Of a stretch of 64,000 nt of DNA, positions 1,141 through 62,613 are shown one piece after another; position 1 is the stretch's first letter, and each line of letters opens with the position of its first letter. Location: positions 320,540,001 through 320,604,000 of the forward strand of contig OZ024742.1 in the NCBI GenBank assembly GCA_964016885.1. Reading direction: 5' to 3'. The position numbers and the translations under genes are program-made. The notes beneath the pieces were generated by a model. It was not told the origin of the DNA. It saw only the letters and a list, made by a program, of their open reading frames with translations, and made no database searches. Origin of the DNA: Eledone cirrhosa. Its lineage: Eukaryota.

Positions 1141-1182
1141 CACCACTGACGATGTTGCAGATGTGCAACGAAAGATTTATGT
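1141..1182 (+). ncRNA. Minimal hammerhead ribozyme-like motif in the Penelope 3' region (stem I weak)
   Basis: CTGACGA T GTTGCA-GATG-TGCAAC GAAA GATTTA; perfect 6-bp stem II. Confidence 0.65.
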
Positions 1183-1390
1183 AAACTATATATATATGTG
1201 TTTGTCTATATTGTATCTGTATTATTTTTGACCACCGGTCAGTCAATGGCAACATTGAGGACCGAGTAAGTTAGATCGCAGATATATATATATAAAAGAC
1301 AGCGAGAAGCGAAAACCAACCAAACAGTGAGTGTGTTCTGTTATTAATTCTGGCAATATTACGCAAATATGACCCTCCCCAAATATAACA

Positions 1391-1925
1391 ATATATATAT
1401 ATACATATACATATATATATATACATATATATACATATACATATATATATATACATATATATACATATATATATATATATATATACATATATATACATAT
1501 ATATATATATATATACATATATATATATATATATATACATATATATATATATATACATATATATATATATATATACATATATATATATATATACATATAT
1601 ATATATATATATACATATATATATATATATATACATATATATATATATATACATATATATATATATATACATATATATATATATATATACATATATATAT
1701 ATATATACATATATATATATATATACATATATATATATATATACATATATATATATATATATACATATATATATATATATATACATATATATATATATAT
1801 ATACATATATATATATATATACATATATATATATATATACATATATATACATATATACATATATATACATATATATATATATATACATATATATATATAT
1901 ATACATATATATATATATATATATG
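1391..1925. repeat. (TA)n microsatellite with periodic C
   Basis: Direct reading. Confidence 0.98.
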
Positions 1926-2530
1926 TCAGGTCACCAGTTGGTGCTACTGGTAACATGTATCCCAGTACAACCTGTCTCATGGTCGGGTCGTTGGCGACTA
2001 AACTGGCAACCCCACCAAGGTTTCTTGGTGAGGAGGGTGACTTTGGACATCCTGCAGGACTAAAAACAAAACCTGTCAAAGGGCAAGGGAGCTCTTAAGA
2101 GTCAATAGCCATCCAAAATCACCGGGAGAGATGACCCCTTAGCCTTTGTCAAGGCAGAATTCTAGGAGAAGGAAAACTCTGATATAACACCTGCAATCCT
2201 GATGGTATCCAATGATGTTGACCTGTTCTTCTTTTTGGTAAATATCATCTTGGTTAAGAGAGTGGGACTGGCTTTGTGCAGTGCCTTTGCTCACTATAAA
2301 AGCTTCACAGCACAGGCATTGCTTTATATCTGGAGATCTCTCTGCACTTGTCATCACATGGTACCATGGGCCCTGCACTATGTGTCAATAATGGTCACAA
2401 GTGTAGTCTTTGTACCAGAGTTTTCAAGTCGCTGGCTGGACTAAAGTCACATTCGTTCAGCGCATCGGTAGGGGTTCTCCTACATGGATATAAAGTAGTG
2501 GCCGTACTCGAAAACGAGTTGGCAGCCACC
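1926..2530 (+). mobile_element. Non-autonomous RTE-related element (probable 5' UTR joined to zinc-finger remnant and RTE 3' tail)
   Basis: Body shared with 26797-27372; remnant [17 protein letters not shown]; tail GGCCGTACTCGAAAACGAG matches RTE tail at 42597-42630. Confidence 0.65.
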
Positions 2531-4078
2531 ATATATATATATATGTATATATATATATGTATATATATATATATGTATATATATATATATATATATGTAT
2601 ATATATATATATGTATATATTTGTATATATATGTATATGTATGTATATGTATATATATGTATATATATATATATGTATATATATGTATATGTATATATAT
2701 GTATATATATATATATGTATATATATATATATATATGTATATATATATATATATATGTATATATATATATATATATATATATATATATATGTATATATAT
2801 ATATATATGTATATATATGTATATATATATATATATATATGTATATATATGTATATATATATATATATATATATGTATATATATGTATATATATGTATGT
2901 ATGTATATGTATATGTATATATATATATATATATATATATGTATATATATATATATGTATATATATATATATATATGTATATATATATATATATATATAT
3001 ATATATGTATATATATATATATATATGTATATATATATATATGTATATATATATATATATATGTATATATATATATATGTATATATATATATATATATGT
3101 ATATATATATATATGTATATATATATATATATATGTATATATATATATATGTATATATATATATATATATGTATATATATATATATATATATATATATAT
3201 GTATATATATGTATATATATGTATATGTATATATATATATATATATATATATGTATATATATATATATATATGTATATATATATATATATATGTATATAT
3301 ATATATATATATGTATATATATATATATATATGTATATATATATATATATATGTATATATATATATATATATATGTATATATATGTATATATATATATAT
3401 GTATATATATATATATGTATATATATATATATATGTATATATATATATATATATATATATATGTATATATATATATATGTATATATATATATATATATAT
3501 GTATATATATATATATGTATATATATATATATGTATATATATATGTATATATATATATATATATATGTATATATATATATATATATATGTATATATATAT
3601 ATATGTATATATATATATATGTATATATATATATATGTATATATATATGTATATATATATATATGTATATATATATATATATATATATGTATATATATAT
3701 ATATATATGTGTATATATATATATATATATATATATATGTGTGTGTATATATATATATATATATATATATATATATGTATATATATGTATATATATGTAT
3801 ATATGTATATATATGTATATATATATATGTATATATATATATATATGTATATATATATATGTATATATATATATGTATATATATATATATATGTATATAT
3901 ATATATATATGTATATATATATATATGTATGTATATATATATGTATATATATATATGTATGTATATATATATGTATATATATATATATATGTGTATATAT
4001 ATGTATATATATATATATATGTGTATATATATGTATATATATATATATGTATATATATGTATATATATATATATACAC
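2531..4078. repeat. (TA)n microsatellite with periodic G
   Basis: Direct reading; source of spurious IY-repeat ORFs. Confidence 0.98.
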
Positions 4079-4099
4079 ATCTCCCATGAGGACAGGCTG

Positions 4100-4335
4100 A
4101 AGTATACATCCAGTGAAGCCTCTAGCCCACACTGTAAAGTGGTCGTGTAGGTGTCATGACAAAAAGCATCCAGTACTCTCTGTAAATGAGATTGCTGTAG
4201 AAACCAAGCCAGAATTAGTTCTGTATGACCATGACATGGACACCTGACCTGGCATTGTTTACAACAGGACAACTCGTCTAAACCATGCTAGTGTGATAAA
4301 AGGGACGTTAAACGGTGATGATGATGATGATAATA
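4100..4335 (+). mobile_element. SINE / RTE-tail fragment ending in (GAT)n
   Basis: CCCACACTGTAAAGTGG...AACCATGCTAGTGTG...GACGTTAAACGGTGATGATG, shared with 6470-6783 and 15330-15556. Confidence 0.75.
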
Positions 4336-59086: not shown

Positions 59087-60059
59087 GAAATAAATAAATA
59101 TTCTTAAAAAGACTCCAGTTACATTTTCGATTTCTTTTCCTTATACTTTCACATATGTCCTACACGGACATGTTTTTTTTTCATAAGAAAAACCTCATTT
59201 TCCTCTCTCTCTCTCTCTCTCTCTCTCTCTCTCTCTCTCTATATATATATATATATAAAGTAGCCGCTGTATACATTGACTATAATAAAACATTCTCTTT
59301 TGTAGATGAAATGTCAGTTTATAATTAAATGTATATCATCTTTAATGTTTGTATCATTCCTACATGTAATATATATATATATATGTATGTGTGTGTGTGT
59401 GTGTGTGTCTGTGTGTGTGTGTGTGGTATACATACAAACATATACAGATACATACACACACAGACATGCTTGGTTGAACAGAGGCTTATCTAAAATACAC
59501 ACATATGAAACAATGGTATGATATATATATATATATTACACACACACATAGATATATATATATATATATATATAAATAATCATGTATATATATATATGTA
59601 TATGTGTGAGTGTATATATATATGTGTGTGTGTGTGTGTGTGTATGTGTGTGTAATTATATATGCATGCATTCATATTTTCACGCCCGTAATACAGCCAC
59701 ACTCACACTTTCATACCCCCCCCCCCCTCTCACACATAAAAACAGTCCCGGTGGATCCCGTGAGGATCGCGTTGTTTCCTGGTGTAATATATGTCGTCAG
59801 TACTGGATAACACCAACCTCCAACAGGGTTTTAACATTTGAAAGTTTGATAACCAACATGACTGTTGTTTATGGGGCGAAGGCAAAAATAACTTGGGAAC
59901 TTGCCAACTCTTTATGTTTTATATACTAGCAGCCATATTGTAGAGGTTGTAGAGTTTGTAGTGTTGTGGAGTTGTGGATTGTAGAGCTGTAGTGATGTTG
60001 AGGAAACTCTGTCTGTTTCTCTCTCTCTTTCTCCCCCCACCCCCATATATATATATCAT

Positions 60060-60183
60060 ATAGGAAAAGAGTCAGGACCCCGACGGCTGAGCTCTGACCG
60101 TTTCGACAGCTAGATCCGAACAGTTCAGATCTAGCTGTCGAAACGGCCAGAGCTCAGCCGTTGGGTCCTGACTCTTTTCCTAT
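60060..60183. repeat. Near-perfect palindrome with about 61-bp arms
   Basis: ATAGGAAAAGAGTCAGGACCC...GAAC A GTTC...GGGTCCTGACTCTTTTCCTAT. Confidence 0.95.
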
Positions 60184-60259
60184 TACCCACTCTACTACCC
60201 TAAGTATCATGTACTCTGGTGCGTTATGGTCCACTTGGTTTCTTACCACACTTTCTTGT

Positions 60260-61840
60260 TATATATATATATATATATATATATATATATATATATATAT
60301 ATAAATGAAAGGTATGGAAAACATTGTAGCAAAAAGCCAACAGTATTCCATAATATATATATATATATATAAGATATATATTTTTAATATATATATAAGT
60401 ATGTATATATATATATATATATATATATTTATATATATATATATATATATATATATATATATATATATATTTATATATATATATATATATATTTATATAT
60501 ATATATATATATATATATATATATATATATATATATATTTATATATATATATATATATTTATATATATATATATATATATATATATATATATTTATATAT
60601 ATATATATATATTTATATATATTTATATATATATATATATATTTATATATATTTATATATATATATATATATATTTATATATATATATATATATATTTAT
60701 ATATATATATATTTATATATATATATATTTATATATATATATTTATATATATATATTTATATATATATATATATATATATTTATATATATATATATATAT
60801 ATTTATATATATATATATATATATATTTATATATATATATATATATATATATATATATATATTTATATATATATATATATATTTATATATATATATATAT
60901 ATATTTATATATATATATATATATATATATATATATAGAGAGAGAGANNNNNNNNNNNNNNNNNNNNNNNNNNNNNNNNNNNNNNNNNNNNNNNNNNNNN
61001 NNNNNNNNNNNNNNNNNNNNNNNNNNNNNNNNNNNNNNNNNNNNNNNNNNNNNNNNNNNNNNNNNNNNNNNNNNNNNNNNNNNNNNNNNNNNNNNNNNNN
61101 NNNNNNNNNNNNNNNNNNNNNNNNNNNNNNNNNNNNNNNNNNNNNNNATATATATATAATATATATATATTTATTATATATATATATTTATATATATATA
61201 TATATAAATATATATATATATATATATAAATATATATTATATATATTAAATATATATATATATATATTTATATATATATATATATATTTATATATATATA
61301 TATATATATTTATAAATATATATATATATATTTATATATATATATATATATATTTATATATATATATATATATATATTTATATATATATATATATATATT
61401 TATATATATATATATATATATTTATATATATATATATATATTTATTATATTATATATATATATTTATATATATATATATATATATTTATATATATATATA
61501 TGTATATTTATATATATATATATATATATTTTATTATATTTATATATATATATTTAATATATATATATATATATATATTTATATATATATATATAATATA
61601 TTTATATATATATATATATATATATTTATATATATATATTATATATATATTTATATATATATATATATATATATATTATATATATATATATATATATATA
61701 TTTATATATATATATTTATATATAATATTTATATATTATAATATATATTATATATATAATTTATATATATATATATATATATATTTATATATATATATAT
61801 ATATATTTATATATATAATATATATAGAGAGAGAGAGAGG
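60260..61840. repeat. (TA)n/(TTTA) microsatellite containing an assembly gap
   Basis: Direct reading. Confidence 0.97.
60948..61147. other. Assembly gap (200 N)
   Basis: Run of N. Confidence 1.
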
Positions 61841-62563
61841 GTGAGAAAGATAGATAGATACGCGTGTGAGCATAAAACGATGGAATTGGAAAATACAGCG
61901 AATGTGATGATGACAAGACATTGATGATGATGATGATGATGATGATGACGACGGCGATAATGAACTCTTTGGTCCCAGCGCCTTCCACAACACAACTGTT
62001 ATATGTCTACTTCCGGTGTGTACAATATTCTCTATATTTCCCAGATGTCTCACATGGTGATTAATAAATAGCAGCCATGATGTTGCATAATTCACTTTAA
62101 AGCAACACACACACACACACACACACACACACACACACACACACACATTGGTCGTCCCCCTCCTTCTCCGTCTTACACTTACTTTTATTCCTCCTCCTCT
62201 TCCACTGTCCCTATACTTGCCCGTCTGTCCTTTGTGTGTGTATGTGTGTGTGTGTATATATATATATATATACACATACATACACACGTGTAGATATATA
62301 CACACACACACGTACACACACACACACATGTATATATATATATATATATAATATATATATATATATATATAAATACACACGTACACACACACACACACAT
62401 ATATATATATATACACACGTACACACACACACAAACACACATACACACACACACACACACACCACACATATATATATATACATATATATATATATATATA
62501 TATAATACACACACACACATGTATATAATATATATATTCATTTTATTAAGGCTAAACAGTGAG

Positions 62564-62613
62564 TCTTGTTACTCTGGAGTTTCACCGGATTCTCACAGGG
62601 TCATCAGACAAGA
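62564..62613 (-). ncRNA. Type I hammerhead-like motif with intact canonical core
   Basis: TCTTGT CTGATGA CCCTGTGAGAATCCGGT GAA ACTC-CA-GAGT A ACAAGA; 6-bp stem I, 4-bp stem III, GUA site, weak stem II. Confidence 0.65.

Follow-up and report, generated by a model that had tools for sequence, protein, structure and literature searches.

Hammerhead motifs in 64 kb of Eledone cirrhosa DNA as probable 3' ends of several Penelope-like families, one with a U3-A8 core

What are eight hammerhead-like motifs doing within 64 kb of the genome of Eledone cirrhosa? The window, by which we mean the whole stretch analysed (64,000 nucleotides; contig OZ024742.1 of assembly GCA_964016885.1, positions 320,540,001 to 320,604,000), is AT-rich animal DNA, dense in microsatellites and interspersed with fragments of long interspersed nuclear elements (LINEs). 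An original prediction, made from the letters alone, had described the motifs as unrelated-looking minimal hammerheads and proposed that they belong to non-autonomous, ribozyme-bearing retroelement families at high density, including U3-A8 lineages. Our analysis suggests that the motifs are probably the hammerhead-bearing 3' ends, or pseudo-long terminal repeats (pseudo-LTRs), of several families of Penelope-like elements (PLEs), preserved as short, 5'-truncated copies in microsatellites, with three motifs complete and the others decayed.

All eight motif strings and one half remnant were located where the prediction had placed them, but the complete layout survives in a minority. Exact cores (CUGANGA or UUGANAA, followed by GAAA and UH; hammerhead numbering and the dimer rule used below are taken from PMC4209133) occur in 1146, 42772, 59054 and 62607 and fail in 30611, 53201, 57786 and 58172, while helix I reaches at least 3 bp in 30611, 42772, 59054 and 62607. 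Exact cores, a palindromic helix III and a helix I of at least 3 bp coincide in three of the eight motifs, 42772(+), 59054(+) and 62607(-). Four others (1146, 30611, 53201 and 57786) are damaged yet recognisable, and 58172 is at chance level. A G10.1-C11.1 pair with a preceding unpaired nucleotide is found in 1146 and 53201 and in none of the three intact motifs. Two 3' halves are additions to the earlier list. Apart from 57786, which is described below with its family, the motifs and halves are as follows.

42767 to 42805, plus strand: U3-A8 minimal type I hammerhead; exact core, C17, 8-nt palindromic helix III, helix II of 2 bp beneath a U.U mismatch, helix I of 9 bp in the window copy; predicted cut after 42800.
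62564 to 62613, minus strand: C3-G8 type I hammerhead (62607); exact core, helix I of 6 bp, helix II of 2 bp beneath a C.U mismatch, helix III of 4 bp; predicted cut after 62570; (AT)n 46 nt beyond GAAA.
59054 to 59086, plus strand: U3-A8 core at the apex of an 86-bp palindrome; exact core, helix II of 3 bp, a 6-nt palindrome as helix III, helix I of 3 bp; predicted cut after 59083.
30604 to 30650, plus strand: hammerhead with A13 changed to G; helix I of 7 bp, helix II of 6 bp; on the sense strand of an intron of an ABCD-family gene.
1146 to 1152 (core), 1154 to 1169 (helix II, 6 bp) and 1170 to 1173 (GAAA), plus strand: decayed hammerhead with a helix I of only 2 bp.
53170 to 53208, minus strand: hammerhead remnant (53201) with both cores, an unpaired A and a 4-bp helix II, and no UH in register with helix I.
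58172 to 58211, plus strand: doubtful motif with C in place of U4 and a helix I of 1 bp.
8752 to 8767, minus strand: 5' half of a hammerhead, comprising the first core and the beginning of helix II; 16 nt match 53201 exactly.
58614 to 58736, minus strand: 3' half hammerhead (58733; end of helix II, GAAA, 6-nt palindrome, UH) and 3' end at (CT)n(TA)n; absent from the original prediction.
GAAA at 60140, within 60060 to 60259, plus strand: 3' half hammerhead whose first core is absent; likewise a new find.

The 42772 motif provides the most extensive evidence. We aligned public contigs and reads to 42734-42912 (179 bp) at 80% identity or more, a survey of this one stretch in four of the eight listed runs (X3, X5, X7 and X8 were left out, and X4, like X5, covers a small share of the query), in which contig counts are not copy numbers and the aligned contigs are pre-filtered for likeness. 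The alignments comprised 484 and 496 contigs from two runs of one sample, 126 contigs of a second species and 673 restriction-site-associated DNA (RAD) reads, which bears out the predicted U3-A8 lineage as a dispersed family. Neither core of 42772 carries a variant among the variant rows listed, with 33 further rows outside that listing; this is suggestive of core conservation and of U3-A8 as a family-wide feature. Two listed variants, 42794 A>G (14 contigs) and 42797 T>C (15 contigs), would be compensatory if they sit on the same copies. On either side of the ribozyme, the window copy consists of two further parts.

42806 to 42910, plus strand: 3' part of the 42772 family, including an optional tail of about 65 bp (42843-42910), with a fixed end at (TA)n.
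42730 to 42766, minus strand: copy, in inverted orientation, of the stretch downstream of the 42772 cleavage site; it meets the ribozyme at helix I and abuts (TA)n, as identified by arm comparison.

The two ends of the family behave differently. Its 3' ends stack at 42907-42910 and are followed by (TA)n in 35 contigs of X1, 30 of X2 and 8 of X4, and a second (TA)n-joined end lies behind 42842 (11 contigs, 14 in the other run). The 5' ends are scattered and depth drops steadily 5'-ward: summed contig depth in X1 is 413-696 across the ribozyme against 5,430-8,024 at 42836-42889, a roughly tenfold difference. In many other copies, similarity to the window breaks off just upstream of 42767, with loose ends. 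Because the left arm is an inverted copy and other copies diverge before 42767, the natural helix I would comprise about 5 bp (42767-42771 with 42801-42805), a length that matches published minimal hammerheads (PMC4209133); a natural helix I of 42 bp, or a miniature inverted-repeat transposable element (MITE), was dropped after contig comparison. The 42-bp arms, 42730-42771 and 42801-42842, differ at 6 of 42 positions, and at 42803, 42810, 42814 and 42819 the left arm has the letter that prevails in the family. All six differences are confined to the inner 23 bp, leaving the outer 19 bp identical (Fisher p 0.024), possibly through conversion between the arms. Judged from the alignments, this family combines a 5' end that varies with a fixed 3' end, a tail on one side, an inverted arm and a target in (TA)n, and so corresponds to the insertion layout published for PLEs, with a truncated inverted copy, a tail at one end and a (TA)n bias (PMC8557442, PMC3846280), and this layout recurs in the window for 59054 and 60140. 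As a separate observation, a frame is open for about 46 codons across ribozyme and tail (42774-42915, plus strand), as in Penelopes with an open reading frame (ORF) that starts in the ribozyme; it is not significant alone.

A direct link to coding sequence comes from a second family, here called family A, of which the window contains two copies.

2 to 865, plus strand: C-terminal 287 codons of a Penelope-like ORF (reverse transcriptase (RT) thumb, Cys linker, GIY-YIG endonuclease), cut by the window start.
866 to 1391, plus strand: pseudo-LTR of family A with the decayed hammerhead, ending at a (TA)n array.
57560 to 58072, minus strand: another copy of family A, truncated at its 5' end and retaining the last ORF codons and the pseudo-LTR, with the first core present at 57786 and the second core broken.

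The best named match of the ORF is an Octopus vulgaris RT-domain protein at 60% identity, and 11 relatives were collected. Pfam GIY-YIG was detected in 3 and RVT_1 in 1 of the 12 aligned members, neither of them in the window piece itself. Its CX4CxxC linker is conserved (C155, C160, C163), as are C182, C187, H225 and H230 around a GIY-YIG-type core, and by the features given by Craig et al. (PMC8557442) the ORF would be Neptune/Nematis-like. The 1146 motif lies 280 nt downstream of its stop, which confirms the prediction of Penelope coding sequence beside a motif; at 57786 only the last ORF codons are retained, visible at the DNA level, and the linkage to an ORF is restricted to family A. The two copies share 64% identity over 628 columns, both follow the ORF end and stop at the same point beside a microsatellite, and their helices II differ by two compensatory pair changes. 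The description of all motifs as unrelated therefore does not stand: 1146 and 57786 are one family, and 53201 shares 16 nt with the half at 8752-8767. Among seven related metagenome loci, three extend past the ORF end, where L003 carries an intact minimal hammerhead, L001 a hammerhead with a core change and L002 none. In L002 (1720-2574), what follows the Penelope-like ORF relative is not a hammerhead but another open frame, which contains a Cys-rich stretch resembling a zinc finger. A search of viral contigs found no relative of the ORF.

For the other motifs, we compared sequences and distances to microsatellites. 30611 and 53201 share only 14 nt around the core, and 30611 and 59054, considered as one family, gave no significant alignment. 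One further 3' end shares a segment with 58733.

38524 to 38660, plus strand: 3' end of the 58733 family, between microsatellites, with the ribozyme part absent.

By these comparisons the window appears to hold remnants worth about seven families, which fits a lineage in which 6.83% of the genome is Penelope-like, in 190 families, as reported for O. vulgaris (PMC13282606). Four unrelated motifs (42772, 59054, 58733 and 60140) reach a microsatellite 120-129 nt beyond GAAA, similar to the distance in an anole Penelope element, in which reverse transcription starts 111-118 nt into an ORF beginning at helix II (PMC11167929). A microsatellite lies within 130 nt of 6 of 11 motifs and halves, that of 1146 being an internal run, compared with 14% of random positions, and within 250 nt of 8 of 11 compared with 23%. 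The original prediction had treated this adjacency as a sign of non-autonomous families. PLEs target (TA)n and leave 5'-truncated, ORF-less ends (PMC8557442, PMC4209133); Penelope ends would thus be expected to have microsatellites beside them, and such neighbours are, alone, no sign of that kind.

Together, these data fit the following scenario, whose initial steps draw on published PLE biochemistry combined with the depth gradient and fixed ends seen here. The GIY-YIG endonuclease of an element would nick AT-rich or (TA)n DNA, and the reverse transcriptase would start about 100-130 nt 3' of the ribozyme and mostly stop early. Copies extending as far as the ribozyme would retain it without the ORF, the pattern of the 42772 family, with the ORF link given by family A only. 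In some copies the cDNA may fold back at a short inverted repeat, often a ribozyme helix, and prime its own extension to give an inverted arm. Poor cutting would be expected of a single copy: its short palindromic helix III needs a second one, as published for this motif class (PMC4209133).

Several points weigh against assigning the motifs to Penelope 3' ends. Upstream of 42767, other copies agree poorly (0.47-0.61), and the parent element is not traceable there; family membership outside the window was examined for one motif only, 42772. Neither tblastn nor profile searches of the window found further Penelope coding sequence, so that seven of the eight motifs have none beside them. The tails, at 65-100 bp, exceed the 30-40 bp published for endonuclease-bearing (EN+) PLEs, and helix II of 42772 and 62607, with 2 bp and a pyrimidine mismatch, deviates from the G10.1-C11.1 consensus. 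Finally, single-strand folding of the short motifs is no better than that of shuffles (z between -0.07 and 0.25), a null that is expected for dimer-dependent motifs and is not used as evidence on activity.

The alternative that survives best is that some families, 42772 first among them, are short, fixed-length non-autonomous elements mobilised in trans by Penelope proteins. Such PLE derivatives have been described (PMC8557442, bioRxiv 10.64898/2026.07.22.740005), O. vulgaris has 893 unclassified, recently active families of short interspersed nuclear elements (SINEs) (PMC13282606), no ORF lies beside the motifs of these families, and the short 3' segment of the 42772 family is highly abundant. 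However, the heterogeneous 5' ends and 5'-ward fall in depth of that family are those of truncated copies of a longer element, and solitary minimal hammerheads without an ORF are the published norm for autonomous PLEs (PMC4209133). We therefore regard fixed-length elements as unlikely, though as the most serious competitor to truncated Penelope 3' ends.

Far less probable is that the motifs are monomers of non-LTR retrozymes yielding circular RNAs. These elements (Cervera and de la Pena 2020, PMC7229834; bioRxiv 10.64898/2026.07.22.740005) share with the window motifs a type I hammerhead without coding sequence and a PLE ancestry, and are defined by tandem ribozyme units of 150-450 bp and circular RNA. 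Retrozyme monomers exist (bioRxiv 10.64898/2026.07.22.740005), 62607 combines a helix I of 6 bp with a helix III of sufficient length for a monomer, and the ribozyme of an axolotl retrozyme has a U.U mismatch at its helix II base (PMC7229834). The tandem dimers that the prediction had proposed to look for are nevertheless missing from the window: none of 92 tandem-repeat rows overlaps a motif, and no motif has a head-to-tail second copy. This absence of tandem units within the window argues against retrozymes, as do the PLE-type ends of the 42772 family.

How far the motifs exceed chance was assessed with dinucleotide shuffles of the window in 500-nt blocks, the comparison the prediction had proposed; the permissive descriptors were tuned post hoc, with the motifs already in view. 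Exact cores with a palindromic helix III and a helix I of at least 3 bp occur three times against a shuffle mean of 0.01 (0 of 300 shuffles reach three), which places the intact motifs above background. With one core change and a helix I of at least 5 bp, three matches (30611, 42772 and 62607) compare with a mean of 0.04 (again 0 of 300). With one core change and no requirement for helix I, the class of 58172, 11 matches stand against a mean of 2.33, so that single members of this class are inseparable from chance. An earlier strict descriptor gave two matches against a mean of 0.22 (3 of 100 shuffles reach two). The published RNAmotif descriptor for minimal hammerheads (PMC4209133; helix II of 3-7 bp, GAAANNUH), run for both cores, gave no match in the window. 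Allowing the extended palindromic helix III that the three intact motifs carry, a variant figured in PMC4209133, gave one match (32 of 1000 shuffles have as many), and allowing a 2-bp helix II in addition gave four (0 of 1000 shuffles). Extra descriptor matches at 21270, 52693, 17028, 34022, 17180, 22285, 38345, 38154 and 30390 were set aside as background, 52693 lying inside RTE-like coding sequence; a match at 59058 is the mirror of 59054. An Rfam scan was uninformative on hammerheads because microsatellite matches, which dominate the list, swamp it; no hammerhead model is among the 150 listed of 400 matches. A further reading, in which AT-rich DNA full of microsatellites would produce the motifs by chance or as by-products of palindromes (MITE-like hairpins), is highly improbable. 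In its favour, relaxed descriptors yield 2.3-4.1 matches per shuffled window, 58172 falls in that class, and inverted arms include four of the nine helix I pairs of 42772 as well as, at 59054, the first two letters of the core and some of helix I. Against it, the exact-core motifs with helix I far exceed the shuffles, and the 42772 core is common to a family whose 3' polarity and tail are one-sided, which a MITE would not show.

Three intact motifs in 64 kb correspond to 9.7-137 per Mb (95% range), in a window picked for this trait. Published totals amount to about 6-15 per Mb, with descriptors that differ between studies. They include more than 6,000 hammerheads in Acropora millepora (PMC7229834), about 2,000 plus 1,300 in Schistosoma mansoni and 9,000 in Xenopus tropicalis (PMC4209133). 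Since descriptors differ and the window was selected for the trait, the exceptional density suggested by the original prediction is not established, the more so beside the 6.83% Penelope-like share in O. vulgaris.

The inverted arm of 42772 raises the further question of where such copies fold back. Four long palindromes lie outside satellites in the window, and in three the apex falls at a hammerhead element: in helix I at 42772, in core and helix I at 59054, and in helix II at 60120. In addition to the 42772 arms, they are as follows.

59015 to 59202, plus strand: 86-bp fold-back palindrome with the U3-A8 core at its apex, then about 100 bp to (CT)n(TA)n, identified by palindrome and motif search.
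60060 to 60259, plus strand: 124-bp fold-back palindrome that turns within helix II of the 3' half hammerhead, then about 76 bp to (TA)n, identified in the same way.
52930 to 53008: fourth palindrome, 79 bp with perfect 34-bp arms, at the 3' end of an RTE-like LINE fragment.

The U3-A8 status of 59054 is less secure than that of 42772, because its helix I and first two core letters lie in copied sequence. The same RTE-like fragment (region 52930-53025) has an inverted 18-bp copy at 52709-52726; fold-backs are not limited to hammerhead elements. Palindromic inverted junctions in rotifer Penelopes have been attributed to self-priming (PMC3846280), and accounts of palindromic Penelope junctions available to us (PMC3846280 among others) yielded no tie to ribozyme helices. 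We tentatively suggest that hammerhead helices might be the self-priming sites that generate the inverted arms of Penelope insertions. Against this stand the number of palindromes, only four, and four "skip" joints in the 42772 survey that join arms without the ribozyme, which means that folding points are not confined to it; moreover, truncation near the ribozyme would put apexes there anyway. Opposite-strand joints clustering at 42766-42775 (5 of 6 rows) were not counted as support, because the reference sequence itself switches there.

Among neighbouring features, the C-terminal exons of an ABCD-family (ABCD3/PMP70-like) peroxisomal transporter gene extend over about 30250-43160 (plus strand); one exon matches ABCD3 structures (E 3e-7) and the others were placed by motif. 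30611 and 42772 lie in introns of this gene, the latter in the last one, both in sense orientation, and a cleavage-competent copy there would therefore cut the pre-mRNA; 30611 has its core change, and 42772 would need a dimer to do so. An RTE-like LINE with several C-terminal C2H2 zinc fingers (39563-42441, plus strand) has its 3' end 290 bp upstream of the 42772 element. A nearly whole, frameshifted CR1/L2-like LINE with Pfam endonuclease and RT matches occupies 17550-20956 (plus strand), with copies of its 3' end at 21116-21556, 29062-29415 and 29843-29958. A satellite array of about 50-bp units in inverted blocks spans 21560-23910, with switches near 22050, 22207 and 22417, and an abundant short interspersed repeat at 8995-9122 has about ten copies (for example at 28099, 30910, 50845 and 56396), with up to 99% identity between copies. 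At 53062-53181 (plus strand), a short frame resembles by eye the N-terminal region of a mariner transposase; a Pfam search of it gave no match.

Much of this is familiar from other animals. The minimal type I hammerheads of PLEs (Cervera and de la Pena 2014, PMC4209133) agree with those in the window in cores, palindromic helix III, a helix I of 3-6 bp, a position behind the GIY-YIG ORF, and solitary, heterogeneous copies of which few lie beside an ORF; U3-A8 cores are described there for Schistosoma and Saccoglossus, and small palindromic helices III for Aedes, Marsupenaeus and Saccoglossus. In contrast to our data, the alignment and table of that study include no cephalopod, its hammerheads have G10.1-C11.1 in place of the short helix II of 42772 and 62607, and none of the window motifs passes its descriptor. 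EN+ PLEs of the Neptune/Nematis type with a CX2-5CxxC linker (Craig et al. 2021, PMC8557442; Arkhipova et al. 2013, PMC3846280) share the C-terminal GIY-YIG, Cys linker and CCHH residues as well as 5' truncation, an inverted copy with palindromic junction, a tail at one end and microsatellite targets, a likeness drawn here from motifs and not from a tree. We found no paper on octopus hammerheads, which repeat libraries and supplements may hold, and neither "hammerhead" nor "ribozyme" occurs in the main text of the O. vulgaris study (PMC13282606).

Earlier work thus already covers U3-A8 cores, motifs that are solitary and heterogeneous, and the targeting of microsatellites, and the window adds cephalopod families, including a U3-A8 family common to two species, to a well-described class. 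In vitro, Penelope insertion does not depend on hammerhead cleavage (PMC11167929). If inversion junctions were to cluster at ribozyme helices genome-wide, this would link the motif to insertion structure. If the helices do act as priming sites, the ribozyme fold would shape integration apart from cleavage, a possible part of the reason for the retention of minimal hammerheads despite their poor activity.

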